Of a stretch of DNA of 64,000 nt, positions 10,133 to 56,883 are shown in pieces (position 1 is the first letter of the stretch; each line of letters starts with the position of its first letter). Made by a program: the position numbers and the translations under genes. The notes beneath the pieces are model-generated. The model worked only from the letters and a program-made list of their open reading frames with translations, searched no databases and was not told the origin of the DNA. Location: NCBI GenBank assembly GCA_036785375.1, contig JAWMAR010000478.1, positions 124,001-188,000 of the forward strand. The letters are read 5' to 3'. Origin of the DNA: Leucoraja ocellata. Taxonomy: Eukaryota.

Positions 10133-10831
10133 CCAAAACTTCAATTGAAGAGACAGTTCCACCGCATCGAGGTACTGCGGGGTGCACTTCGGGCTTTGTT
10201 CCCCCTCTATATGATCTCTGTGTGACTTGACGTGTGCGATCATTTGATGTCACACCACTCTTTCCTCAATTGCAATTCTACTCCAAGATTAAAGCTGCCA
10301 GAAATCACACCTTCCCGTCAGTTACCAAGTCAAAGATGGGCATCATCTGGGTGAATTGCAAAATAGAAGTCAATCGATACTCACCAACTGCCAGGTAAGC
10401 GTCAATCTTAGTAACGCCAATACAATCTTGGGTCCAGCCTGATACAGAACACGTGTCTGTGGCGATCAACGTGCTTTCACACTACATAAAAGATCTCCAC
10501 CCGAAACGTTGCCTGTCCCTTCTCTCCATAGATCCTGCCTCGCCCGCTGAGCTTCTCCAGCATTTTTGTCTACCTTCTATTTTTCCAGCATCTGCAGTTC
10601 CATCGTAAACATAAGAGGACAATGTCGTTGCTACGGATGTTGATATTGAGCAGTGTAATACCCATATGGTATTATTAATCCTTATACGTTGAGGCCCATA
10701 ATGATCTTTGTTTTCAGAATCACACAGATGCATTGGTGGAATTCCTGCTGAACTTTATCAAAGTAGTGTGCGCTTACCTCATGTCAACCACACAATGCGC
10801 TGGTAATATGTTCATTCTTTTTGCTTCACAG

Positions 10832-11727
10832 TGAACCTGGTGACAATTGTGATCCTGTGTCGAGGAAAGTGTGGTCTCTCCAGCTGTGTGACTCGCTACC
10901 TGGTGGCCATGGCAGCGGCGGATCTACTGGTCATTATCTTTGACCTGATATTGAGACAGATTCCGATTGCTCATCAAATAAAATTTGTTAAGACCATCCC
11001 CCTGTGTAATATCCACGCAGTCCTGCTTTACGCAGCGACCGACTGTTCTGTCTGGTTCACCGTCTCCTTCACCTTTGACCGATTTGTTGTCATCTGCTGC
11101 CAAAAGCTGAAGCATAGATATTGCACCGAGAAAACGGCGGCTGTAGTTCTGGGCACGGTGAGTGCACTGAGCAGTGCAAAAAATGTTTACTGGTATTTTA
11201 TGAACTCATCTTGGTACAGATTGTCGAATACTCCCTGGTTTTGTTTCATAGATGTCCGCGTTATGGTTTCACCTACCTGGGCAACGATTGAGTTTCTTCA
11301 TTATATTCTCACCCCCTGTGTCCCTTTTGTATTGATTCTGCTGCTCAATACTTTAACGGTCAGACATATTTTGGTGGTCAGTAGAGCCCGCAGGAGACTC
11401 CGAGATCAGGAAAGTGCGAAGAGCTCCAGTGATCCCGAAATGGAGAATCGAAGGAAATCTGTGATATTGTTGTTCATTATTTCCGGGAATTTCATTTTGT
11501 TATGGGCGGTATTTACATTCTATTTAATATGGCGACGAATATATCATTTGAGAAATTCAGGTTTTTTCCTTCCTACCTTTGTATCAGAAATAGGATTTAT
11601 GCTGCAGCTGCTTAGTTGTTGCACAAACACGTGCATCTATGCAGTAACACAGACAAAGTTTAGAGAGCAGTATTTGACTGTGTTAATATATCCGGTTACT
11701 GTACTGATAAGATTAATTAAACACTGA
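10832..11727 (+). CDS. GPR139/GPR142-like class A GPCR, coding exon 2 (TM1-TM7); spliced product 325 aa
   Basis: Acceptor TTTTTGCTTCACAG; hydrophobic helices with YLVAMAAADLL (TM2), FTFDRF (DRY variant) and CCTNTCIY (NPxxY variant); open frame; ATTAAA at 11749-11754. Confidence 0.92.
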
Positions 11728-28179: not shown

Positions 28180-29736
28180 TCGCAGATGATTGTGCGAATC
28201 TGCCAATAATTGCTTCTGCATCCAATTCATCTAACAATTCCTTTTCAATGGATAGCAACATGTATGATTCAACATTCTCCTCAGACAGCGAATTTCTTAA
28301 CCTTGTCTATATGATCTTTAGGTTTGAAAATGTCCTCTCACATTGGATTGAGTAACTGATAGTGTGCAGATGACTTTATAAAGTTCATAAAGGTTATCAT
28401 ATGCCTTGTTATGAAGTCTGTTGGATGCCAGAATTTTTAGAACACCGATGGGCAAGTGCTGCAAATTTTACAATTGTTGCAACTGGAATCCATATTCTCA
28501 CCATCATTAAGCAATAGCTTTAATACATCAAAGTTTGAAGCAAAAGAAAACAATTCCAATATTACTTGATCTTTGCTGATTTGCGGAAACAGCTTAATAA
28601 TACCTTCCAATGCTTCATCTTCAAGGCCCTTCTCTGCAATAGTTTTAAACTTTGCTGGGTCCAAGCAGGACAAATCTTTATACAACTGTTTGTGTTGTAG
28701 AAAGCGTGATTCTAGTGACTGGACAATGCGATCCATTATTGGGTTAAACACATTTACCCCAAAATCAGCGAGAGAATCTGAGGAATTTCTTTCATCATCA
28801 ATAAGCTCCTCTGCCATTCTTTTCTTCTTCCTCTGCCTCTTAATTGGCAATGCTGTTTCCAATGCATCAATTTCCAATGTGTGATTTTCATCCATATTCA
28901 TCTGTGAAATCCTGTAATTACACTTATTTACAAATTCCAAAGCCTTGCTGTGAACGTTATCAAATGTTCTTGTCTGTTCCTTCAAGTCTGTTGTAGCTGA
29001 ATCTAGCAAACTCCATGCTGTAAAAATATCTAAACCACTTGTCTGTAGATAACTTGACAACAGGGTTGTAGTTTCAAATATATACAAGTAAGTAAATGCT
29101 GTCAATATGGTTTCAAACTTTAGAAGACTTTGAAGTAAAACATTTGCTTCATGTTTTGTTTTTGCATCAAACTTTTCTGAATCTTGTATCATTGATAATA
29201 AGCATGTCAATAGATTTACGAAAGTACTGGCAGCGGCATCATCAAAACGTCCAAATATAGTTGTTGCTGCATTGGATTTTCCTGACCATCTGGTCTCACC
29301 AATTAGCTTTAATCGTTTCATTTTTTCTTGTCCTAGATGTTTTCCACCAACTTCTATCCATACAGCCATTCTCTTGTATGATGCTTTCATAAAAGTTGCT
29401 ATATTCTGGAGCAAATTGAAAAAAGAAACTGCAGGCACACAACATTTTGTTGTTTCAGTTATCACCAAATTCAAGACATGGGCATAGGACCACATATGAA
29501 CATGTTGATCAGCCACATCAGCAATTTTACTTTGTAATCCATTATACTGGCCATGGTAGCTTGCAGCGCCATCTGTGCTATCGGATAAACATTTTTGGGG
29601 GGCGATTTTAAGATGCTGTAATGTTTCAATCAATAGATCAAAAAGTCCCTGTCCTGTACCATCATTACTTGGCACAACTGAAGGTAGTCGCTCACAGATA
29701 ATACCTTTAAGCACATACCGAATAATAATGCTACTG
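28180..29736 (-). pseudogene. hAT transposase catalytic and dimerisation part
   Basis: ORF 28437-29762 plus a frameshifted C-terminus. The N-terminal part lies at ~34290-34880 and ~36560-36950. Confidence 0.88.
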
Positions 29737-30767
29737 ATCACTGATGATGTGTTCAGGAGCATCTATTGATGTATTTGTATCAATCACTGTGCTGGCGAAA
29801 CCAGTGGCGACCAGGAATAGACTGGTTGACAACCAAGAATAGGGTGGTGACGACTGGAGAGACAGTGGACAGCTCGGAAAGACGGTAACCGGGGTGGGGC
29901 GGGTTGGCAGCCCAAACCGCATCCTCTGAGAGGAGGAGACCCAAATCACGCTACAGAAAACACATGGAAAAATACCCCCACGGTGCCCGAAAGGGGGGGA
30001 GGATGAGCACCTCTATTGGATGGATCAAAGGTTCACGACTAATGGCAATGGACAACCGACTATGAGTATCAAATGCAGATGTGGTAAGGTTTGCAAGAAC
30101 AGCGGAGGCCTGAAGATTCACCAGACCCGGATGAAGTGTTTGGATGGACAGGGAGTGTCACAACGCACAGGTATTTTACCTGGTGAGACGCAGGAGGAGC
30201 CAGGCCCGGAATCACCCCATAGAGCCCGAAGCCTCCAAGTGGCGCAACTAGTCCCTCGGAACAGTTCTTCGGAGGGAGAAGGTTCGAGTCAGATGGCCTC
30301 AGGCCTGCAAGACGGCAGTCTGGCATCAGTTCGACGAGGACGTCGACAAGGTGCTGGAAGCAACTGCGAAAGGAGACATGGACCAAAGGCTGCGGTCGAT
30401 GACAACAATCGTCATCAGCCTAGCTGTGGAAAGGTTTGGAGAAGTGGAGAAGAAGCCGTCCTGAACACCTTTCACCATGAACCAACGAGCAACGAAGATC
30501 CACAAGATCCGGCAGGAGCTGAAGTCCCTCAAGAAGCAGTATGAAGAGGCCAGGGAAGAGCAACGTCCCCCTTGGCTGAGCTGTGAACCATCCTGAGGAA
30601 GAAGCTGATGACCCTCCGTAGGGCTGAGTGGCACCGAAGATGCCGGAAGGAAAGAGCCAGGAAGCGAGCATCCTTCATAGCCAACCCCTTCGGCTTCACC
30701 AAACAACTACTCGGGCAGAAGCGCAGTGGGAGTTTGGCTTGCCCTAAGGAGGAGATCGACCGGCACC

Positions 30768-31635
30768 GGTAGGCGGCGCGGCTCTGGCCAGCAGCGGCCT
30801 CTGCAGCCTGTCCGCGTTTTTATTATTTTTTGTCTGTGTTTTTATGTAGTTTTTGTTATTTTATGTTGGGGTGTGTGTGTGGGGGGGCGGGGGTGGGGTG
30901 GGAGGGGGGGGAAACTTTTGAATCTCTCCCTGCACTGGAGACCCGACCTTTTCTCGTCGGGTCTCAGGTGTCGTTGAGGCCGCAACGAGGAGCGGCCTCC
31001 AACGGGAAGAAGCCGGGGACTCTGGTGCCGACTCACCGTTGCCGTCGCGGAGCTGGCCGACACCGGAGCGGGTGGAGCGGTGGTGGAGCGCTGCTGTTGC
31101 TGCTGCCGATGCCGCTGCTACTGCTGAGTCGGAGGCTGCTACTGCGGGTCTGCGGACGGCTCGGACGACCCCGCGCGGCTCCCTGGAGGGAGACCGCTTT
31201 TCGGGGCTCCTGCAACGGCGAATTCTCCCGCCCGAGTTGCGGGGTCGAAGAGCTCCTAGAGCGGGGCCTAACACCATTGCCCCGCGCGGCTGGAACGGCC
31301 GCGGGACTTTGCGAGCACACACCGGGGGCTCCAACACCAAGACCCGGTGTGCGACCTCGCACCACCCGGCGTGGCTTCAATGGCCACGGGACAATCGCCA
31401 TCGCCAGCCGGGGGCTTTGACTTTGACTCTGACATGGGGGGGGGGGGGGGAGAGTGCAGTGGAGAGATAAGTTTTTTTGGCCTTCCATCACAGTTATGTG
31501 ATGGATGTTTATGTAAAATGTAATTATGTTGTGTCTGGGGTCTATTTGTGTGTAATGTATGGCTGCAGAAACGGCATTTCGTTTGGACCTCCAGGGGTCC
31601 AAATGACAATTAAATTGACTCTTGACTCTTGACTC
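30768..31635 (+). mobile_element. GC-rich non-coding SINE-like retroelement with (TTGACTC)n tail, inserted in the HERO ORF
   Basis: Splits EEIDRH/LLTTYSDP. Its 3' end CATTTCGTT..AAATGACAATTAAATTGACTC resembles the Rex1-type tail at ~57080-57128. Confidence 0.75.
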
Positions 31636-34192
31636 TCTTGACGACCTACAGTGACCCTATCAGGCAGCAGGAGCTGGGCCAATGCAACATCCTGATAAAA
31701 CCACCTCCACCCATCAAGGAGTTTGATAGTAGAGAGCCACTCCTGAAAGAGGTCCAGGACGTTGTGAAGAGAACAAGAGCTGGCTCAGCCCGTGGCCCGA
31801 GCGGAGTCCCCTACAGGGTCAACAAGAACTGCCCCTTGTTACTGAAACTGCTGTGGAAGATCCTGAAAGACATCTGGAGGAGAGGAAAAGTGGCGCAGCA
31901 GTAGCGATTCGCTGAAGAAGTCTAGATCCTAAAGGAGGAAGATTCCTAAAAGATCGATCAGTTCAGAATCATCTCCTTGCTAAGTGTTGAAGGCAAGATT
32001 TTCTTCAGCATATAGCGTCGAGGCGGCTAACCAACTTCCTCTCCAGCAATGGCTACATCGACAGCTAAGTGCAAAAGGGAGGCTTATCTGGAGTGCCGGG
32101 GTGTCTAGAGCACACGGGAGTGGTGACCCAGCTCATCAGAGAAGCTAGGGAGAACAAGGGTGACATGACAGTGCTCTGGCTTGACCTGGCCAACGCCTAC
32201 GGCTCCATCCCGCACAAGCTGATCCAGACAGTCATGGCCAAGCATCATGTGCCGGGTCAAGTGGCAGATCTCATTCTGGACTATTACAACCAGTTCAACA
32301 TGAGAGTCTCATCAGGGTCAGTAACATCAGAGGGGCACAGATTGGAGGTTGGGATCATCACAGGCTGTACCATCTCTGTGATCCTTGTTGCCTTGGCGAT
32401 TAACATGATCGTCAAGTCTGCTGAGACAGAGTGCCGGGGCCCTCGGACCAAGTCAGGAATGCGCCAACCACCAATCAGAGCCTTCATGGCCAACCACTGA
32501 GTCAGTGCCAGGAGGCAGGTGGATCCTGCAGGGGTTGGGGAAACTGATTGGATGGGCAAGGATGAGGTTTAAGCCAGGAAAATCAAGGTCACTGGTGCTG
32601 AAGAAGGGCAAAGTCATGGACAGGTTCCGCTTCAACATCGAAGGGACACCAATCCCAACTGTCTCCGAAAGGCCCTGAAGAGTCTTGGAAAGGTGTTTAA
32701 CAGCAGCCTGAAGGATACAGCATCTGTCCAGGCAACCTGTCAGGAGCTGGTGAACTGGTTGAGAGCAGTGGACCGGTCGGGGCTTCCCGGCAAGTTCAAG
32801 GCATGAATTTACCAGCATGGTATCCTGCCAAGGATACTCTGGCCACTGCTTGTCTACGAAGTCCCAATATCCATTGTAGAGAGATTGGAGAGGAAGTCAG
32901 CAGCTTTTTCAGAAGGTGGCTGGGACTGCCCAGGAGCCTTAGCACCATCGCCCTTTACGGAAATAACACCAAGCTCCAACTGTCCCTGAAGTCCCTGGAG
33001 GAGGAGTTCAAGGTGACTCGGGCCAGAGAGGTGATGCTGTACAGGGACTCCAGCGACCCCAAGGTGGCTCAAGCAGGGGTGGAGGTGAAAACTGGGAGGA
33101 AGTGGAGAGCCGGCGAAGCCGTGCTGCAAGCAGAGTCCTGGATACGCCACAGAGTCCTGGTGGGAGCAGTGACTCGGGGAAGAGCTGGCCTGGGAATCTT
33201 CCCATCTCCCCAGTTTGACAAGGCCAAGGGGAAGGAGAGGCGCAGGCTGGTCCAGGAGGAAGTGAGGGCAGTGGTGGAGGAGGAGAGGTGTACCAGAGCA
33301 GTTGGATTGAGGCAGCAGGGAGCCTGGACAAGGTGGGAGCAGGCCATGGACCGAAAAGTCACATGGACTGAGCTCTGGCAGGCTGAACCACAGCGCATCA
33401 AGTTCCTGGTCCAGGCAGTGTATGATGTTCTGCCCAGCCCATCGAACCTCTTCATCTGGGGCAAAGCGGAATCTCCAGATTGCCCGCAATTCTCAGGCAA
33501 GGGGACGTTGGAACACATCCTGAGCTGTTGCCCAAAGGCTCTTGGGCAGGGCCGGTACACATGGCGTCACGACCAGGTTCTCAAACCCATTGCAGAAGCC
33601 ATCAGCATGGGAATCAGCAGCTGCAGACGAGAACGCCCCACCACCCAGATGATCACCTTCGCGAAGGCTGGAGTGCAGCTGCCAAGAACCACAGCAGCCA
33701 GGAATCCGTCAGGAATCCTGGCGACTGCGCAGGGCTGGCAGCTTTCCGTAGACCTGGTGAAACAGCTGAAGTTCCCACAGCACATTGCCATGACCACCCT
33801 GAGGCCAGATATCCTCCTGGTCTCAGAGGCGACCAAAAACATCGTCTTGTTGGACCTGACAGTGCCGTGTGAGGACCGTCTGGAGGAGGCCCACGAGAAG
33901 AAGATGGCCAAATATGAAGAACTGGTCATAGACTGCCGCAAGCAGGGCTGGAAGGCAAGGTGTATGCCCATCGAGGTTGGCTGCAGAGGTTTTGCAGGGC
34001 AATCGCTCTACAAAGCCTTGAGTGCACTGGGCATAAACGGAGTGGCAAGGAGAAGGCCCATCAAGAACACCACAGAGGCAGCGGAGAAGGCCTCGAGATG
34101 GCTCTGGATCAGGAGAGGAGGTCTATGGGGAGGAGCGAATGCCACCTGAACACGTCGTGGTCTGATCAACCACGGCTGGGTCGCCTGGGTGA

Positions 34193-34261
34193 GGGTGTCT
34201 GATGTTGAAAGACCTGAAACACCCAATGACCCCAGGTTACATCACTGATGATGTGTTCAGG
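34193..34261 (+). ncRNA. Candidate strand-permuted hammerhead ribozyme in the HERO 3' UTR
   Basis: GGGTG-TC-TGATGT ... GAAA-CACCC ... ACATCA-CTGATGA. Helices I and III are perfect 6-bp; helix II is weak in this copy. Confidence 0.45.
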
Positions 34262-34880
34262 AGCATCTATCGATGTATTTGTATCAATCGATGGATGAAT
34301 TTTATCTTGAGTTGAATCAACCAATAGAATAATATTGTGCTTGAGAAACTTCATGACTAATTCTTTCTTGTATCATATTCTTCATAATTTTGATTAACAT
34401 GCTTATAGTAGTTTTACTCAGGTATGTAACAAGTCCACCACGGCCTTTACTTTGAGCCTTTCCTTGTTGCTCTAATCATTTGATTCTTTGTTTAGACTAG
34501 TTTTGCACTGCAGAAACGTGAGCTGCCATAATGGTGTCATATTTTGCCATCAACTGCACTGTAGCTAAAAAATTGCCTTGATTCAGAACCTCATTATCTA
34601 GAATGTAGGCCGATTCATTTCTGTGACCTCGAAAAGGAAGTGCTTGCTTGCCAAACATCTTCATGATGTCTATAATCCTCATGACAATACTTCTCTGCTT
34701 CAATACTTCTTCTTTCCTTTTAATTAGAGATGCTGCAAAAAAATTATCTTAGGTGCCATCATTAACCACATTGATAGATTGCGGAGCATTTCTGACATAT
34801 GTTGTTGTCGATTCATGTAAATGAGATCATTACTATGCATAACTAGTAATTTACGTTTGAATTCTCATGTAGTTGAACTT

Positions 34881-45995: not shown

Positions 45996-46128
45996 CTCTA
46001 CCACTACGTCACCATGCTGCTCTTCTACGCTCTGTTCACACCGGGTCCACAGCGCAGGATAAACGGTGTGGGAAGTCCAGTGAACTGACAGGGTGTTCAC
46101 TGCTAAAGATTGTTCCTTCTCTCCTCAG

Positions 46129-46497
46129 CCGTGATGTCGGGAGACTTGAGTGCGTGGTATCACCGACCTGTGACAGCGCAGAATGGTTTGTGTGCACGGA
46201 TTCCGTGTAACTACACGTACCCGTCGTATCTGAACAGTAAACCACGGACTGGAATCTGGTTTAACAGTGGGTCGCACACCAACAAAGGTCCTGCAGCCTT
46301 CCACTCTGGGGATCCCAGTCTAGCATCAACAAAATTTCAGCATCGGACCCGGCTGTCAGGAATCCTGATAGACAACGACTGTTCCCTGGTTATAGACAAC
46401 GTCACGCCGCAAGATGCAGGTTCTTATTTTTTCAGAGTTGATTTCGGAGCGGAAAATAAGTACAACTACCTCCCTGCAACACAGCTCAGTGTTACTG
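46129..46497 (+). CDS. Siglec-type V-set Ig domain exon
   Basis: VTAQNGLCARIPCNY..GIWF..RTRLSG..NDCSLVI..DAGSYFFRVD..KYNY: Siglec cysteine pattern and F-strand Arg; phase 1-1, 369 nt, donor GTAAGT. Confidence 0.9.
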
Positions 46498-46953
46498 GTA
46501 AGTGCTCTGTATAATTCACTCATTCACTCAACAGTTTCTCCCAGCTGTTATCAGGCAACTGAACCATCCTACCACAACCAGAGAGCAGTGTTGAACTACT
46601 GTTGACCTCACTGGTGACCCATCGGACTATCCTTGATTGGTCTTTGCTGGCTTTACCTTGCACTAAACGTTATTCCCTTATCATGTATCCATACACTGCA
46701 AATGGCTCGATTGCAATCATGTATAGTCTTTCTGCTGAGGCAGATAGTAGTTCAGGACCGCACCCTGGTTGTGGTAGGATGATTCAGTTGCCTGATAACA
46801 GCTGGGAAGAAACTGTCCCTTAATCTGGAGGTGTGTGTTTTCACACTTCTATACCTTGTAAAAACATCCTTGCTCGTGTGGGACTGGGATTTCGATGTGA
46901 ACCGATCTATCCAGTGATATTTAACTAACAGTATTTGTTTTTCTGTGCGTTAG

Positions 46954-47247
46954 ATTTCACGGATAAACCCACGATATTCCCTGCTGAATTGGTGGCAGGA
47001 AAGCCTGTGAACATGACCTGCTCCTTCAGCACCACGTGTAATGGAACGGCCCCCACCTTAACCTGGGTCACCCCCGCTGATGTACCCCCGTCAGCCTCAC
47101 ACAGCATAACTCAGCAGGGTGACACTCTGACATATACTTCTGTTCTGTCCCTGACCCCAGCGCTCAAACATCACGGACAAAACCTCACCTGCAGAGTCAC
47201 ATACCCAACTGTGTCATCGGAGCAGACCCTCACACTGACTGTGGAAT
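46954..47247 (+). CDS. Siglec domain-2 C2-set Ig exon
   Basis: DKPTI..LVAGKPVNMTCSFSTTCNGTAPTLTW..SVLSLTP..HHGQNLTCRVTYP; phase 1-1, 294 nt. Confidence 0.9.
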
Positions 47248-48129
47248 GTAAGTACGGAGATCGTTTATTGTGCAGGAACATCAATAATCTATTAGCAGCG
47301 CTGGTATATAAGGTCATAGACGATAGGTACAGAATTAGGCCATTCAGCCCATCAACTCTACTCTGCCATTCAATCATGGCTGATCAATCTCTCTCTCCTA
47401 ACCCCTTTCTCCTGCCTTCGCCCCATATCCTCTGACACCCGTACTAATCAAATCAACACCAAAAGCTGGAGAAACTCAGCAGGACAGGCAGCATCTCTGG
47501 AGAGAAGGAATGGGTGACGTATCGGGTCGAGAGCCTTCTTCAGACTGAAAGTTACAGGAAAGGGAAACGAGAGATATAGATGATGATGTGGAGAGATGTA
47601 TGAACTACCTGATCTCCTGGTTGCTAAACACATGAATTCTCCTTCCCATTCCCACACTGAACTTTCTGTCCTCGGACACCACCATTGTCAGAGTGAGGTT
47701 CAATGCAAATTGGAGGATCAGCATCTCATATTTTGCTTGGGCAGTTTACAGCCCAGTGGTATGTATATTGATTTCTCTAACTTCAGGTAGCCCCGGCATT
47801 CCCTCTCTCTCCATCCCTCCCCCACCCAAGTCTCATCAGCTTCTTGTTCTCACCCAACAAACAGCTAACAACGGCCTGTTTCCTTTATCATCGTTAATTT
47901 TTTGCATATCTTTCATTCTTTGTTCTATATGTCTCTACACCTTCGTCTATATCTCTCATTTCCCTAAACATAGAACTAGTGTGTGAATGTGTGATCAATG
48001 GTTGGCGCGGACTCCATGGGCTGAAGGGCCTATTTCTGCAGTGGATCTCTAAAGTCTGAAGACTAAAGTCTTTTACAAGGATCACCGAAAGTGCCGCAAA
48101 ACTGGTTGCTGAATTTTATCTGTTTGCAG

Positions 48130-48851
48130 ACGCCCCCCAGAATCTCTCAATCACTTCCCCCGACAATGTGAACAATTCCTGGGTCAGTATAAAGGAAGGA
48201 AACTCTGCAGCGATCCTCTGCTCCCTCCAGAGTTTCCCAGCGTCTAACCTGACGTGGAGACATCCCGGTGTCACGCTGAACACAACACATTCCAGCAACG
48301 AGCTGCGGATGGACATAGACATAGACATGGAAAATAGGTGCAGGAGGTGGCCATTCGGCCCTTCGAGCCAGCACCGCCATTCATTGTGATCATGGCTGAT
48401 TGTCCCCAATCAATAACCCGTGCCTGTCTTTTCCCCATACCCCTTGACTCCACTAGCCCCTAGAGCTCTATCTAACTCTCTCTTAAATCCTTCGAGTAAC
48501 TTGGCCTCCACTTCCCTCTGTGGCTGGGAATTCCACAAATTCACAACTCTCTGGGTGAAAAAGTTTTTTCTCACCTCAGCCTTAAGTTGCTTTCCCTTTA
48601 TTCTAAGACTATAGCCCCTGGTTCTGGACTCGCCCAACATTGGAAACATTTTTCGTACATCTACCTTGTCCAGTCCTTTTACGATTTTATATGTTTCTAT
48701 AAAATATCCCCTCATCCTTCTAAACTCCAGTGAATACAAGCCTAGTCTTTTCAATTCCCTCAGCCGACAGGGAAGGACGCTGGGGTCTATCAGTGTGTGG
48801 CAGAGAATGAACACGGGACAGCAGAGAGGGATGTGACCCTCACTGTAAAAT
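48130..48851 (+). pseudogene. Ig domain-3 exon disrupted by an antisense CR1 fragment (~48314-48754)
   Basis: YAPQNLSI..KEGNSAAILCSLQSFPASNLTW..NELRM [CR1] FPQ..DAGVYQCVAENEHGTA; donor reads GTGTGT. Confidence 0.88.
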
Positions 48852-51446
48852 GTGTGTAGACAGACACTGTCATGTCTATGTATAGGCAGATGGTTTATTG
48901 GCCCATGAGAGATGCTGGAATTCACTAACACAAACACACACACTCTCTCTCTCACACACACTCACTCACACACGCAGTCTCCCTCTCTCTTTCGCACAAA
49001 CACACACATTCTCTCTGTCCCACACATGAACATCGTCCCTCACACACACACACACTCTGTCGTTCATACATACACACTCACTCAAACACACACACATTCT
49101 CTCACAAACAATCGCCACACACACACGCGGTCTCTAGCTCCCTCTATCTCCCTCTCTCTCTCTCTCTCTCACACACACATGCACTCATTCACTCAAACAC
49201 ACATACAGACACACATCCTCAAGATCTCGGAGAAAACCCACGCAGGACACGGGGAGAACGTGCAAACTCCGTACAGAAAGGCACCGGTGGTCAGGATTGA
49301 ACCCGGGTCTCTGGCGCCGTGACTCTACCCACTGCATCACCGTGCCGCCCACATCTACAGCCTTGTTTGTTCCCCACCTGTATGTAACCTGTCTCACCTC
49401 TGCCTGACGTTGTTGGATTATATTGGTCTTTCCACCCAGAAACCTTCAATGCCTCCCTCTATGTATCGTCACTCCTCACGTTACTTAAACACAAAGTAGT
49501 GGAGCAACTCAGTGGGTCAGGCAGTGTCTTTAGAGTCATAGAGTCTTACAGCATGGTACCAACTTGCCCACCCCAGCCAACGAGCCCCATCTATACTCTG
49601 CCCACCTGCCCTACTTCGGCCCATATCCCTCCAAACAAGTCCTATCCATATTTGACGTCCATCAGTCTGAAGAAGGGTTTTGGCCCGAAACATTGCCTAT
49701 TTCCTTCGCTTCATAGATGCTGCTGCACCCGCTCAGTTTCTCCAGCACATTTGTCTACCTCCTATCCATGTAAACTGTCCAACTGTTTTTTAAATGTTGC
49801 AATGGTCCCAGCCTCAACTACCTCCTCCGGCAGCTCATTCCTTATAAAAGGACTGGACAAGCTAGATGCAGGAAAATTGTTCCCAATGTTGGGCGAGTCC
49901 ACAACCAGGGGCCACAGTCTTAGAATAAAGTGGAGGCCATTTAAAACTGAGGTGAGAAATAACTTTTTCACCCAGAGAGTTGTGAATTTGTGGAATTCCC
50001 TGCCACAGAGCGCAGTGGAGGCCAAATCACTGGATGGATTTAAGAGAGAGTTAGATAGAGCTCTAGGGGCTAATGGAATCAAGGGATATGGGAAGAAGGC
50101 AGGCACGGGTTATTGATTGGGGACGATCAGCCATGATCACAATGAATGGTGGTACTGCTCGAAGGGCCGAATGGCCTCCTCCTGCACCTATTTTCTATGT
50201 TTCTATGTAGAGAGATAAAGAACAATGAATGTAAGATCGGAGAGCAGGAGGCATCACAGAGGGGGAGCAGTGAGAGGGGGTGTGGCAGAACTGCAATGTT
50301 GTGAAAGATTGCAGCAGGAACTTGATCATTGGCCAGATGAACTAATGAATGGTTAATTGAATTTAAATCAGAGAAATGTGAGATGTTGCATTTTGGGACG
50401 TCTAACAAAAGCAGCACCAACACATTTAATGGTAGGCCTGTGGGGAGTGTTGTAGAGCAGAGGGATCAAGGAGTGCAGGTGCAAGGTTCCTTGAAGATCA
50501 AGTCACAGGTGGTCAAAAAGGCTTTTGGCATACTGGCCTTCATCAGTCAGAGTATTGAGTATAGAAGTTGGGAGGTCATGTTGCAGTTGTATAAGACGTT
50601 GGTGAGACCGCATTTAGAATATTGTGTTCAGTTCTGGGCACCATGTTACAGGAAAGATATTATCAAGCTTGAAAGGGTTCAGTGAAGATTTATGAGAATG
50701 TTGCCAAGGACTGGAGGGCCCGAGCTACAGGGAGAGGTTGTACAGGCTGGGTCTCTATTCCTTGGAGCGCAGATGGATGTGGGGTGATCTTATAGTGAAA
50801 AGATCATGAGGGGAATAGATTGAGTGGATGCACAGAGTATCTTGCATAGAATAGGGGAATCGAGGACCAGAGGACATAGGTTCAAGGTGAAGGAGAAAAG
50901 ATTTAATAGGAACCTGAGTAACTTTTCACACAAAGGGTAGTTGGTGTATGGAACAAGGTGCCAGAGGAGGTAGTTGAGGCAGCGTCTATCCCAACGTTTA
51001 AAAAACAGTTAGACAGGTACATGGATACGACAAATTTGGAGGGATATGGGCAGGTGGGACTAGTGTATCTGGGACATGTTGGCCGGTGTGGGCAAGTTGG
51101 GCTGAAGGGCCTGTTTCCACACGATCACCCTATGACTCTAACTCTCGTCCGAGAGAGGACAACTTCTTCAAAGTAGACATATCTTGAGGAGATTTCACAG
51201 TGGAGCAGACGAAATGTGTAGGAAGGAACTGCAGATGCTGGTTTAAACCAAAGATAGATACAAAAAGATGGAGTAACTCAGCGGGTCAGGCAGCATCTCT
51301 GGAGAGTAGGAATGGGTGACGTTTCGGGTCGAGACCCTTCTTCAGACTAGTTGCATTCGTACTTCATCTTTTCTCTCCGTACTGTCCTGGTTGGCGCGTG
51401 GAATTCTGCCATGTTAACTCGCGTTTAAACCTTCGTTTGTGTTTAG

Positions 51447-51728
51447 ATGCTCCACAAAATCTCTCAATTGCTTACCACGACGATGCGAACAGTTCCTGGG
51501 TGATTGTAAAGGAAGGAAACTTTGCAGCGATCCTCTGCTCCGTTCAGAGTTTCCCAGCATCTAACCTGACGTGGGTACATCTCGGTGTCACTCTGAACAC
51601 AACATGTTCCAGCAACGAGCTGTGGATGGAGTTCCCTCAGCTGGCATGGCAGGACGCTGGGGTCTATCAGTGTGTGGCGGTGAATGAACACGGGACAGCA
51701 GAGAGGGATGTGACCCTCACTGTAGAAT
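51447..51728 (+). CDS. Ig domain-4 exon (intact)
   Basis: APQNLSI..KEGNFAAILCSVQSFPASNLTW..QDAGVYQCVAVNEHGTAERDVTLTVE; 282 nt, AG/GTGAGT. Confidence 0.85.
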
Positions 51729-51969
51729 GTGAGTAGACACACACTAACACATCCCTCGAAACGTCATAAATGATAGGGGCAGAATTAGAATGTTGAATGG
51801 CCAAGTCTACTCCACCATTCAATCATGGCTGATCTATCTCTCCCTCCTAACCCCATTCTCCTGCCTTCTCATAGAGCCATAGAGTTATAGAGCCATTGAT
51901 TCATAGAGTGATACAGTGTGGGAACTGCTCAACTTGCTTTCAACAGCCTACATGTCCCAGCTACACTAG

Positions 51970-52195
51970 TCCTTCGGCACCACGTGTGATGGAACGGCAC
52001 CCACCTTAACCTGGGTCACCCCCGCTGATGTACCACCGTCAGCCTCACACATCGTAACACAGCAGGGTGACACTCTGACATATACTTCTGTTCTGTCCCT
52101 GACCCCAGCGCTCAAACATCACGGGCAAAACCTCACCTGCAGAGTCACATACCCAACTGTGTCATCGGAGCAGACCCTCACACTGACTGTGGAAT
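51970..52195 (+). pseudogene. Duplicated, 5'-truncated domain-2 exon
   Basis: Copy of 47022-47247 lacking its acceptor and first ~68 nt. Confidence 0.85.
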
Positions 52196-53075
52196 GTAAG
52201 TACGGAGATCGTTTAATGTGCAGGAACATCAATAATCTATTAGCAGTGTTGGTATATAAGGTCATAGACGATAGGTACAGAATTAGGCCATTCAGCCCAT
52301 CAACTGTACTCTGCTATTCAATCATGGCTGATCAATCTCTCTCTCCTAACCCCTTTCTTCTGCCTTCTCCCCATATCCTCTGACACCCGTACTAATCAAA
52401 TCAACACCAAAAGCTGGAGAAACTCAGCAGGTCAGGCTGCATCTCTGTAGAGATGGAATGGGTGCCGTAGCGGGTCGAGAACCTTCTTCAGACTGAAAGT
52501 CACGGGAAAGGGAAACGAGAGATATAGACGATGATGTGGAGAGATGTATGACCTACCTGATCTCCTGGTTGCTAAACACATTAATTCTCCTTCCCATTCC
52601 CACACTGAACTTTCCGTCCTCGGACTCCACCATTGTCAGAGTGAGGTTAAATGCAAATTGGAGGTTCAGCATCTCATATTTTGCTTGGGCAGTTTACAGC
52701 CCAGTGGCATGTATATTGATTTCTCTAACTTCAGGTAGCCCCGGCATTCCCTCTCTCTCCATCCCTCCCCCACCCAAGTCTCATCAGCTTCTCGTTCTCA
52801 CCCAACAAACAGCTAACAACAGCCTGTTTCCTTTAACATCGTTAACTTTTTGCATATCTTTCATTCTTTGTTCTATATGTCTCTACACCATCGTCTTTCT
52901 CTCATTTCCCTAAACATAGAACTAGTGTGTGAATGTGTGATCGATGGTTGGCGCGGACTCCGTGGGCTGAAGGGCCTATTTCCGCAGTGTATCTCTACAG
53001 TCTGAAGACAAAAGTCTTTTACACGGATCAACGAAAGTGCTGCAAAACTGGTTGATGAATATTATCTGTTTGCAG

Positions 53076-53767
53076 ACGCCCCCCAGAATCTCTCAATCAC
53101 TGTCCCCGACAATGTGAACAATTCCTGGGTCAGTATAAAGGAAGGAAACTCTGCAGCGATCCTTTGCTCCCTCCAGAGTTTCCCAGCGTCTAACCTGATG
53201 TGGAGACATCAGTGTCACGCTGAACACAACACGTTCCAGCAATGAGCTGTGGATGGTGCAGGAGGAGGCCATTCGGCCCTTCGAGCCAGTACCGCCATTC
53301 ATTGTGATCAGGGCTGATCGTCCCCAATCAATAACCTGTGCCTGCCTTCTCCCCATATCCCTTGATTCCACTGGCCCCTAGAGCTCTATCTAACTCTCTC
53401 TTAAATCCATCGAGTAACTTGGCCTCCACTGCCCTCTGTGGCAGGGAATTCCACAAATTCACAACTCTCTGGGTGAAAACGTTTTTTTCTCACCTCAGCC
53501 TTAAATGGCTTCCCCTTTATTCTAAGACTATAGCCCCTGGTTCTCGACTCGCCCAACATTGGGAACATTCGTGCATCTTCCTTGTCCAGTCCTTTTATAA
53601 TTTTATAAGTTTCAATAAGATATCCCCTCATCCTTCTAAACTTCAGTGAATACAAGCCTATTCTTTACAATTCCCTCAGCTGACAGGGAAGGATGCTGGG
53701 GTCTATCAGTGTGTAGTGGAGAATGACCATGGGACAGCAGAGATGGATGTGACCCTCATTGTAGAAT
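53076..53767 (+). pseudogene. Duplicated domain-3 exon with the same CR1 insertion plus an additional indel
   Basis: Copy of 48130-48851; GACATCAGTGTC versus GACATCCCGGTGTC. Confidence 0.85.
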
Positions 53768-53841
53768 GTGAGTAGACACACACTGCCATGTCTATGTAAA
53801 GGCAGATGGTTTATTGGCCCATGAGAGATGCTGGAATTCAC

Positions 53842-53893
<52 letters not shown>

Positions 53894-56246
53894 TCTCTCA
53901 CAAACAATCGCCACACACACGCTCCCTCTCTCTCACACACACACACACACGCACTCATTCACTCAAACACATACAGACACATATCCTCAAGATCTGAGAG
54001 AAAACCCAGGCAGGTCACGGGGAGAACGTGCAAACTCCGTACAGAAAGGCACCGGTGGTCAGGATTGAACCCGGGTCTCTGGCGCTGTGAGGCAGGAGCT
54101 CTATCCACTGCGCCACCGTGCCGCCCACATCTACTGCCTTGTTTGTTCCCCACCTGTATGTAACCTGTCTCACCTCTGCCTGACGTTGTTGGATTATATT
54201 GGTCTTTCCACCCTGAAACCTTCAATGCCTCCCTCTATGTATCGTCACTCCTCACGTTGGTTAAACACAAAGTAGTGGAGCATCTCAGTGGGTCAGGCAG
54301 CGTCTTTAGAGTCATAGAGTCTTACAGCATGGTTACAGGTCCTTTGGCCCAACTTGCCCACACCGGCCAACGAGCCCCATCTATACTCGTCCCACCTGCC
54401 CTACTTCGGCCCATATCCCTCCAAACATGTCCTATCCATGTTTGACGTCCATCAGTCTGAAGAAGGGTTTTGGCCCGAAACATTGCCTATTTCCTTCGCT
54501 CCATCGATGCTGCTGCACCCGCTCAGTTTCTCCAGCACTTTTGTCTACCTCCTATCCATGTTACCTGTCCAACTGTTTTTTTAAACGTTGCAATGATCCC
54601 AGCCTCAACTACCTCCTCCGGAAGCTCGTTCCTTATAAAAAGGACTGGACAAGCTAGATGCAGGAAAAATGTTCCCAATATTGGGCGAGTCCAGAACCAG
54701 GGGCCACAGTCTTAGAATAAAGGGGAGGCCATTTAAGACTGAGGTGAGAAATAACTTTTTCACCCAGAGAGTTGTGAATTTGTGGAATTCCCTGCCACAG
54801 AGCGCAGTGGAGGCCAAATCATTGGATGGATTTAAGAGAGAGTTAGATAGAGCTCTAGGGACTAATGGAATCAAGGGATATGGGGAGAAGGCAGGCACGG
54901 GTTATTGATTGGGGACGATCAGCAATGATCACAATGAATGGCGGTACTGGCTCGAAGGGCTGAAAGTCCTCCTCCTGCACCTAATTTCTATGTTTCTATG
55001 TAGAGAGATAAAGAACAATGAATGTAAGATCAGAGAGCAGGAGGCATCACAGAGGGGGAGCAGTGAGAGGGGGTGTGGCAGAACTGCAATGTTGTGAAAG
55101 ATTGCAGCAGGAACTTGATCATTGGCCAGATGAACTGATGAATGGTTAATTGAATTTAAATCGGAGAAATGTGAGATGTTGCATTTTGGGAAGTCTATCA
55201 AAAGCAGCACCAACACAGTTAATGGTAGGCCTGTAGGGAGTGTTGTAGAGCAGAGGGATCAAAGAGTGCAGGTGCAAGGTTCCTTGAAGGTCAAGTCACA
55301 GGTGGTCAAAAAGGCTTTTGGCATACTGGCCTTCATCAGTCAGAGTATTGAGTACAGACGTTGGGAGGTCATGTTGCAGTTGTATAAGATGTTGGTGAGA
55401 CCGCATTTAGAATATTGTGTTCAGTTCTGGGCACCATGTTACAGGAAAGATATTATCAACCTTGAAAGGGTTCAGTGAAGATTTATGAGGATGTTGCCAA
55501 GGACTAGAGGGCCCGAGCTACAGGGAGAGGTTGTGCAGGCTGGGTCTCTATTCCTTGGAGTGCAGATGGATGTGGGGTGATCTTATAGTGAAAAGATCAT
55601 TAGGGGAAGAGATTGAGTGGATGCACAGAGTATCTTGCATAGAATAGGGGAATCGAGGACCAGAGGACATAGGTTCAAGGTGAAGGAGAAAAGATTTAAT
55701 AGGAACCTTTCACACAAGTAACTTTTCACACAAAGGGTAGTTGGTGTATGGAACAAGGTGCCAGAGGAGGTAGTTGAGGCAGTGTCTATCCCAACGTTGA
55801 AGAAACAGTTAGACAGGTACATGGATACGACAAATTTGGAGGGTTATGGGCAGGTGGGACTAGTGTATCTGGGACATGTTGGCCGGTGTGGGCAAGTTGG
55901 GCTGAAGGGCCTGTTTCAACACGATCACCCTATGACTCTAACTCTCGTCAGAGAGAGGAGAAATTCTTCAAAGTAGAAATATCTTGAGGAGATTTCACAG
56001 TGGAGCAGACGAAATGTGTAGGAAGGAACTGCAGATGCTGGTTTAAACCAAAGATAGATACAAAAAGATGGAGTAACTCAGCGGGTCAGGTAGCATCTCT
56101 GGAGAGTAGGAATGGGTGACGTTTCGGGTCGAGACCCTTCTTCAGACTAGTTGCATTCGTACTTCATCTTTTCTCTCCGTACTGTCCTGGTTGGCGCGTG
56201 GAATTCTTCCATGTTAACACGCGTTTAAACCTTCGTTTGTCTTTAG

Positions 56247-56527
56247 ATGCTCCACGAAATCTCTCAATTGCTTACCACGACGATGCGAACAGTTCCCGGG
56301 TGATTGTAAAGGAAGGAAGCTTTGCAGCGATCCTCTGCTCCATTCAGAGTTTCCCAGCATCTAACCTGACGTGGGTACATCTCGGTGTCACTCTGAACAC
56401 AACATGTTCCAGCAACGAGCTATGGTTGGTGTTCCCTCAGCTGACATGGCAGGATGCTGGGTCTATCAGTGTGTGGCGGTGAATGAACACGGGACAGCAG
56501 AGAGGGATGTGACCCTCACTGTAGAAT
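56247..56527 (+). pseudogene. Duplicated domain-4 exon with 1-nt deletion
   Basis: 281 nt versus 282 nt; GCTGGGTCTAT versus GCTGGGGTCTAT shifts the frame before the second Cys. Confidence 0.8.
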
Positions 56528-56883
56528 GTGAGTAGACACACACTAACACATCCCTCGAAACGTCATCAATGACAGGGGCACAATTAGAATGTTGAATGGC
56601 CAAGTCTACTCCACCATTCAATCATGGCTGATCTATCTGTCCCTCCTAACCCCATTCTCCTGCCTTCTCATAGAGCCATAGAGTTATAGAGCCATTGATT
56701 CATAGAGTGATACAGCGTGGGAACTGCTCAACTTGCTTTCAACAGCCTACATGTCCCAGCTACATTAGTCCAACCTGCCCATGTTTGGCCCATATCCCTC
56801 CAAACTTGTCCTAACCATGTACTTGTCTGTTTCTTAAACGCTGGGATAGTCCCAGCCTCAACGACCTCCTCTGGCAGCTCATT

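Follow-up and report, generated by a model that had tools for sequence, protein, structure and literature searches.

Can a hammerhead ribozyme be built from parts that stand in reversed strand order, and why would a long interspersed nuclear element (LINE) carry such a ribozyme in its 3' untranslated region (UTR)? The question is raised by a 64,000-nt stretch of Leucoraja ocellata DNA (contig JAWMAR010000478.1, positions 124,001 to 188,000; hereafter the window), in which a decayed Hero-clade LINE of the restriction-like endonuclease (RLE) type shows, directly past its stop codon at 34149, a hammerhead core ordered UH, GAAA, CUGANGA with pseudoknotted helices. The first-pass annotation had proposed this arrangement, and the letters and pairings on which it relied are present: GGGTG-T-C (34193-34199) with GAA-A-CACCC (34216-34224), TGATGT (34200-34205) with ACATCA (34239-34244), CTGATGA at 34245-34251, and CCTGGG (34184-34189) with CCCAGG (34231-34236). 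As the best explanation, held with a confidence somewhat above even, we propose that this is a true hammerhead of new wiring, and that self-cleaved, unit-length Hero RNA would be circularised and reverse-transcribed from an internal start.

We collected relatives of the element by a metagenome scan with an endonuclease alignment, which confirmed 382 stretches; the best 80 were used, of which 5 were too short for a test of the 3' UTR, leaving 75. A strict descriptor (helix III, UH, helix I, YGAAA and CTGANGA in fixed order) matched 51 of the 75 related 3' UTRs, versus none of 75 reverse complements, 75 upstream coding stretches and 1500 dinucleotide shuffles. With a relaxed finder, the motif was located in 59 of the 80 loci; 13 of the 16 long-enough loci that it missed carry a recognisable motif that is damaged or cut off. 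Chance resemblance in one decayed sequence might be suggested by Rfam, which at E values up to 10 returned no hammerhead and no other significant match for the 3' UTR of the window copy. Given 51 of 75 matches against 0 of 1650 in the controls, plus the covariation described below, we consider this explanation ruled out for practical purposes. Outside the metagenomes, two scans of viral contigs gave no relatives, and prokaryote genomes gave four loci. One of these (L142), a Hero fragment with the full motif, lies in a contig of 2.7 kb assigned to a bacterial genome assembled from a metagenome and is most likely a carry-over of eukaryotic host DNA.

The core positions C3 U4 G5 A6 N7 G8 A9, G12 A13 A14, A15.1-U16.1 and H17 are present in our tally set of 57 rows from 21 families, from which four loci with a mis-picked helix (L081, L100, L128, L135) and one source-genome copy had been removed. 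The families share 40-77% protein identity with each other (median 50%); their protein tree is poorly resolved (2 of 18 forks starred), and changes were therefore not counted on it. Within the rows, N7 takes all four bases (T33 C11 A8 G5), position 17 is C23 T22 A12 G0, and G10.1 is found in 56 of 57. A free N7 together with the absence of G at position 17 points to constraints of the cleavage type, that is, to conservation of a catalytic rule. We thus predict, with good confidence, that functional members of the family cleave.

How the core closes depends on helix II, which the first-pass annotation had judged poor and had sought behind CUGAUGA. Paired there, it forms in only 7-12 of the 21 families per position, with own partners no better than swapped ones (-0.8 versus -1.2 kcal/mol); a version with a U insert in the style of the published SGC-1/2 ribozymes was likewise rejected. 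The strand before GAAA finds its partner instead 18-21 nt ahead of U16.1. In this upstream strand, G10.1 occurs in 21 of 21 families, pairs 2-4 are paired in all 21 with three to four pair types each, and pairs 2-5 are all paired for 19 of 21 own partners versus 35 of 420 swapped ones. In the window, GGGTC (34178-34182) pairs with GACC(T) (34211-34215), so that helix II is not poor in this copy; C11.1 is here a T, giving a G-U wobble, and most dispersed copies inspected show C at this position or the CpG partner change. Since the 5' strand of helix II lies upstream, the chain is open between A9 and G10.1, and the core is reassembled at this junction with the help of two extra helices, P1 and P2. 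Past A9, the chain enters P1, which pairs back upstream, and hairpin P2 lies between P1 and G10.1. The P1 duplex reaches -15.9 kcal/mol with its own partner versus -8.0 with swapped partners across the 21 families.

With the upstream helix II, no helix conflicts with another, and in the full model no nucleotide is used twice. Helices I, II and III flank the core, G10.1-C11.1 closes helix II, and P4 joins the strand leaving helix II to the strand entering helix I, providing a peripheral contact between the two; by analogy, P4 may be the counterpart of the SGC interaction helix. All helices can form in one molecule, and the dimeric or trans assembly that had been invoked for the core is not needed. 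Of the two competing folds suggested earlier, the pairing TTCAGG/CCTGAA turns out to be helix P1 itself and is compatible with the core, and the ACATCA-CTGA-TGATGT hairpin, found in only 1 of 21 families, was rejected as a conserved fold. The first-pass annotation had thus overlooked the upstream strand of helix II, P1, P2 and, as shown below, the terminal redundancy of the element.

Covariation was measured on 41 motif-positive rows picked from 61 and aligned plainly with MAFFT; one of them (L111) is misaligned. Across helices II, P4, III and I, which comprise 20 pairs, 95.5% of cells are paired, and 17 of the 20 pairs show two-sided changes; for helix I the values are 96.3% and 5 of 5 pairs, and for P4 91.9% and 4 of 5. 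The covariation score was 0.723 versus 0.178 for shuffled and at most 0.148 for slid pairings, the slid control being lenient and the structure derived from the same sequences. Core conservation, compensatory changes in the helices and a helix II, on which the earlier reading had been made to depend, are all found across the 21 families. We are nearly certain, on the strength of this covariation, that the predicted fold is real.

Two further features recur in the fold. A kink-turn joins two helices through a 3-nt bulge, behind which come tandem G-A / A-G pairs. A kink-turn-like loop separates helix III from P4: the standard pattern occurs in 9 families and in 28 of 57 rows, and, among the 21 families, GA follows on the bulged strand after 2-3 nt in 16 and is absent in two. 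Such a loop could provide the bend that was hard to explain for Eckert et al. (PMC10085705). Moreover, the P2 loop contains a palindrome of at least 6 nt in 12 of 21 families versus 6.9% in the background, and its sequence changes among families (TGATCA, TGGCCA, GACGTC, TCATGA). The palindrome is possibly a signal for dimers formed through kissing loops.

Nested folding recovers P1, P2, P4 and helix III and gives zero probability for helices I and II. This would also fit a fold that does not cleave, derived from a hammerhead or resembling one, to which the element protein docks, the terminal repeats then coming from tandem read-through or from jumps between uncut RNAs. Helices I and II, however, have zero probability because they are pseudoknots, to which nested folding is blind, and they covary as strongly as the nested helices. 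Also against a docking fold stand the absence of conflict among helices once the upstream helix II is used, the free N7 and the lack of G at position 17 in 21 of 21 families, and the invariant junctions described next.

The ends of the element bear on what such a ribozyme would do. In the source genome, the element's 3' end joined directly to its 5' UTR gives 57 exact matches, versus 0 for the control. Searching from the 5' UTR, we obtained 68 matches. Of the first 30 of these, 28 have the element's own 3' end before the 5' UTR, and two represent a single duplicated insertion cut at most 1 nt from the junction. The junctions are invariant, with no added or duplicated letters. The same join is seen in 13 metagenome loci, whose assemblies may be collapsed repeats, and a Hero N-terminus follows in 12 of the 14 loci that were translated. 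At the other end of the insertions (91 loci, 23 without an anchor and the remainder partly duplicates), we found 51 distinct flanks, where the 3' ends are ragged from -5 to +7 around the junction and carry no poly(A); two of them run 4 and 7 nt into 5' UTR sequence.

We refer to the stretch of own 3' end at the start of an insertion as its lead. From 75 of 81 loci (the 6 missed by the script all carry leads), we obtained 39 independent insertions, after merging L179 with L180, and 38 of these begin with a lead of variable length. Twenty of the 38 leads continue upstream past the cut site, by as much as about 690 nt or a whole further copy; in two of them this extension measures at least 1.5 kb. 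The remaining 18 start downstream of the cut site, 16 within the window equivalent of 34231-34260 and none within 3 nt of the site; this clustering may reflect stalling at the folded core or at a bound protein on a second pass. On the template, neither the junction nor the cut site was a point of interruption. An active ribozyme in an upstream tandem copy could still do no more than set the 5' end of a linear element RNA, in the manner of the hepatitis delta virus (HDV)-like ribozymes of R2, or control mRNA stability. The head-to-tail layout, which sets a ribozyme about 90 nt before each 5' UTR, and the 18 leads that start downstream of the cut site would suit this, but 20 leads reach beyond U1.1 and none starts there, which largely refutes the simple form. 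We consider such a role improbable, a variant with mixed cut and uncut templates being conceivable.

The 20 copies that reach beyond U1.1 cannot derive from a linear RNA that begins there, and we therefore propose a circle. In an ordinary 3' UTR, a cut would separate the priming site from the open reading frame (ORF), a difficulty that a circular unit would resolve. In our model, P1, P2, P4 and helix III form a nested scaffold, to which helices I and II are added as two pseudoknots, and the kink-turn-like bend brings P4 to where it can link the ends of these two helices. When a copy that is tandem or terminally redundant is transcribed by read-through, the RNA would contain two ribozymes, and two cuts would release one unit of about 3.65 kb, with U1.1 as its first and C17 as its last nucleotide, whose ends may be rejoined to a circle by the ribozyme or by a host RtcB-type ligase. 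Priming by the element protein would then take place inside the unit, at the apparent 3' end some 90 nt downstream of the cut, and the reverse transcriptase (RT) would copy once round the circle and run on for a variable distance. With such an internal start and run-on, new insertions would begin with a repeat of their own 3' end, and insertions with a whole ribozyme inside this repeat would act as new source copies. A circular unit would account for a junction that never varies, for the missing tail and for priming that is internal and ragged, and it would regenerate source copies; cleavage, ligation and the circle are the steps that we infer. The complete statement, that Hero is an autonomous protein-coding LINE whose RNA is cut by its ribozyme, re-ligated into a circle and copied by internally primed, rolling-circle reverse transcription, and whose hammerhead is split at A9/G10.1, with two pseudoknots, a kink-turn-like bend and possibly a kissing-loop signal for dimers, we hold to be evenly balanced between right and wrong.

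Several observations weigh against this account. One raw poly(A)-selected RNA run (235 reads) showed a start pile of 5 molecules at L216:4514, which lies 3 nt before U1.1 (4517) and on the mate direction usually meaning antisense RNA. Three of the 75 metagenome loci are without any motif, U16.1 is changed to C in three of the loci missed by the finder (L069, L079 and L086, two of them from one family), and the invariance of U4, G5, A6, A13-A15.1 and U16.1 is partly imposed by that finder. In the literature searched, we found no tested hammerhead broken at A9/G10.1. The intact cut site in almost all copies, the missing pile-up of starts at U1.1 and the U16.1 changes would all suit the docking fold introduced above; set against the covariation and the junctions, we rate it as rather unlikely.

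A further set of observations concerns the repeats and the cut site itself. If one stretch of RNA served as template for both repeats of an insertion, the two should be identical when the insertion is new. We recovered 17 of 45 pairs of 5' and 3' repeats, about 13 of them independent, the remaining 28 having no recoverable partner end. Pairs L166/167, L189, L227, L231 and L159/178 share rare variants; L145/164, L218, L162 and L183 differ at subfamily-diagnostic sites, which again counts against a single circular template. At the cut site, insertion scars make up 4 of 10 non-homopolymer events versus about 1.8 expected, a difference that is not significant. Among the anomalies seen there, two copies are truncated at -2 to 0, one has a replaced stretch whose end falls exactly on U1.1, and others show +T insertions or 6-nt deletions from U1.1. 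Targeted 5'-end patterns gave 5 matches at the site (2 independent truncations and 1 replaced stretch) and 3 (of one flank type) and 0 at two control positions, and further 5'-end patterns gave 4, 6 and 1 matches, all of these being small counts.

The discordant pairs, which fit two templates, and the few copies that break, gain or lose letters at the site raise another alternative: the ribozyme is active, the template is a linear or nicked unit whose ends are held by the ribozyme fold or by a second RNA (a dimer through the P2 loop), and the RT jumps the break. End-to-end template jumping is reportedly a property of the R2 RT, and the palindromic P2 loops of changing sequence in 12 of 21 families would suit a dimer. 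About a dozen anomalous loci stand, however, against 922 copies that cross the predicted cut site unchanged in the source genome (exact copies of a 27-nt stretch spanning it), the enrichment of scars falls short of significance, and discordance can also be produced by later gene conversion: the duplicate pair L183/L215 differs at its 3' end. We therefore regard a jumped break as unlikely, though worth keeping in view, and continue to favour the circular template.

The assignment of the element to the Hero clade rests on several features. Its ORF is broken by many stops and frameshifts, with RT, CCHC and RLE motifs recognisable, and, counted by eye, the RT frame from 32069 agrees in 106 of 140 residues with HERO-2_DR (PMC5678591, supplementary file 6). 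The arrangement in the family, a single ORF with an RT resembling that of described Hero elements, a C-terminal CCHC and a PD..D RLE, agrees with the Hero features (single ORF, CCHC, RLE) given in the available portions of PMC2790886 and PMC4640811. The 51 different 3' flanks indicate that insertion has no target-site specificity. Named protein relatives of the ORF come from teleost fishes, and the nearest solved structures are R2 proteins. In the window (30069-30140) and in the downstream ORFs of L096, L134 and L140, we also observed a conserved Cys-X2-Cys...His motif at the N-terminus, whereas the available portion of PMC2790886 reports no motif upstream of the RT in HERO elements. The unit is about 3646 nt long. 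In the 3.44-Gb source genome the family is large, with 4586 first-look candidates for the endonuclease domain, 150 of which were scored; a second Hero family there, with another linker before helix II, has the same motif (L353-L357, L360-L362, L365, L370). One locus (L120:92-1848) has only about 1.7 kb between 5' UTR and endonuclease end and is possibly an internally deleted, non-autonomous derivative. The window copy itself is a relic, with a dead ORF, C11.1 changed to U and a repeat of only 48 nt, and its insertion has been duplicated (3' flank common to 29 of 40 scored matches).

Table 1. Coordinates in the window of the Hero copy and of its predicted ribozyme parts
Feature	Position	Strand	Remark
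Repeat at the 5' end, 48 nt copied from the 3' end of the element (= 34241-34288)	29737..29784	+	fused directly to the 5' UTR
Hero 5' UTR, run of short hairpins with purine-rich loops	29785..29930	+	alignable across distant families
Broken Hero ORF (N-terminal Cys/His motif, RT, CCHC knuckle, RLE)	29930..34149	+	other repeat inserted at ~30767-31636
P1 5' arm CCTGAACAC	34145..34153	+	pairs with 34253-34261; pair probability 0.99
P2 hairpin, loop CTGATCA (34162-34168) containing palindrome TGATCA	34154..34176	+	ends just before G10.1
Helix II 5' strand GGGTC, G10.1 = 34178	34178..34182	+	supplied from upstream
P4 5' arm CCTGGG	34184..34189	+	putative equivalent of the helix tying stems I and II in type-SGC ribozymes
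GA of kink-turn-like internal loop between helix III and P4	34191..34192	+	partner AAT-GA 34225-34229
Helix III 5' strand GGGTG, U16.1 (34198), C17 (34199)	34193..34199	+	predicted cut after 34199
Helix I strand after the cut site, TGATGT	34200..34205	+	96.3% paired in the alignment
Helix II 3' strand (34211-34215), G12 A13 A14 A15.1 (34216-34219), helix III 3' strand (34220-34224)	34211..34224	+	
Bulge AAT, then GA, then P4 3' arm CCCAGG (34231-34236)	34225..34236	+	
Helix I partner ACATCA (34239-34244) and core C3-A9 CTGATGA (34245-34251)	34239..34251	+	
P1 3' arm	34253..34261	+	directly behind A9 and U34252
Terminal hairpin 34263-34276 (loop varies among subfamilies) and ragged 3' end ~34288	34263..34288	+	no poly(A)

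The hairpin series of the 5' UTR is also found at L096:2010-2160, L134:2040-2190 and L140:2015-2165, and may be a candidate for cap-independent translation or protein binding; Rfam at E values up to 5 gave no relevant family for the junction and 5' UTR. The repeat inserted in the ORF (30767-31636) is GC-rich and about 870 nt long, with a 90%-identical copy near another Hero locus (L220:7387-8274, reverse strand numbering). The Hero copy splits a decayed minus-strand ORF (28437-29762, 34290-34590), which resembles a hAT-type transposase (no Pfam match); ATC is common to target and element at both insertion junctions. Elsewhere in the window, a single-exon rhodopsin-family G protein-coupled receptor ORF and CD22/Siglec-like immunoglobulin exons were seen (10807-11724, 46107-47432, 51320-51733), together with a tandem duplication of about 4.8 kb (47022-56771). 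The region recurs at least 29 times in the source genome and is therefore probably an expanded immune receptor cluster.

If the proposed reading is true, Hero would add a further natural wiring of the hammerhead, breaking a block that was assumed to be unbreakable, and would show that animal chromosomes hold thousands of non-circularly permuted ribozymes, which pattern searches and Rfam have missed. It would also illuminate the Hero replication cycle, namely how a non-site-specific RLE LINE without poly(A) sets its RNA ends and makes terminal repeats. A circular LINE template would connect LINE biology with retrozymes and viroid-like RNAs, and would be relevant to RLE-based gene-insertion tools.

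Among known ribozymes, the closest to the Hero motif are those of type SGC, CSG and GCS. The reversed order is real in the window, but the first-pass annotation had believed it to be undescribed, and in this it was mistaken: the type-SGC order UH, GAAA, CUGANGA was published by Eckert, Friedrich, Weinberg and Weinberg (2023, PMC10085705). In that study, SGC ribozymes come from metatranscriptomes, with a single GCS candidate from genomes of known organisms, and cleavage in vitro is reported for SGC and CSG ribozymes, whose four helices and cyclic block order are those of Hero. The Hero motif shares with these types the cyclic block order, a short linker joining helices I and II (1-8 nt in Hero, typically 3 in type SGC) and a fourth helix by which the other sides of these two helices are tied, and shows the linear S, G, C core order of type SGC. 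It differs in that block C (CUGANGA with the helix II strand behind it), assumed inseparable by those authors and holding a one-nucleotide insert at A9/G10.1 in the SGC-1/2 oligos, is split: the strand with G10.1 precedes the cut site, and P1 comes after A9. The type-SGC RNAMotif patterns, which require helix II right behind CUGAUGA(U)G, accordingly miss the Hero motif. In Hero, moreover, both strands connect helix III and the fourth helix through the kink-turn-like loop, unlike in type SGC. Its order (helix II strand, S, G, CUGANGA) is no circular permutation of C, G, S, which separates it from types I, II and III. In cyclic terms, we would place the Hero motif in the SGC/CSG/GCS class, opened where the class was thought to be closed. 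We found no description of a Hero ribozyme or of the A9/G10.1-split wiring in the literature searched, outside which lay subscription journals and Repbase reports, so that their absence there is unproven; these two features, rather than the reversed order, are apparently new.

The pseudoknotted (PK) hammerhead of Zhan et al. (2024, PMC11300833) resembles the Hero motif, in the part of that paper available, in having a hammerhead core in a rewired, pseudoknotted frame with an extra helix; it differs in that helix II is pseudoknotted with a stem-loop on helix I, in a pistol-like manner. Among mobile elements, R2 (Hero's nearest solved protein relative) and L1Tc also have a self-cleaving RNA in a LINE. 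According to the available portion of PMC6765202, their HDV-like ribozymes are of another class, lie at the 5' end and make a linear RNA end, past which insertions cannot reach. Penelope-like elements, as covered by the same portion, share with Hero an autonomous retroelement, a layout of terminal repeats and tandems and a hammerhead inside the repeat, and differ in having another RT with a GIY-YIG endonuclease and type I minimal hammerheads that often cleave as dimers. The likeness to retrozymes extends to the RNA. Metazoan retrozymes are described, in the available part of Cervera and de la Pena (2020, PMC7229834), as retro-RNAs cut by ribozymes and circularised by RtcB in vitro; tandem genomic copies, unit-length cleavage by hammerheads, circularisation and a proposed reverse transcription into tandem cDNA are set out there and in the available part of a 2026 preprint (10.64898/2026.07.22.740005), which does not mention Hero. 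Retrozymes, however, are small (170-1500 nt), non-coding and non-autonomous, carry type I or III hammerheads and are linked to the machinery of Penelope or Gypsy, whereas Hero is an autonomous RLE LINE, with a unit of 3.65 kb that includes its own RT/RLE ORF.

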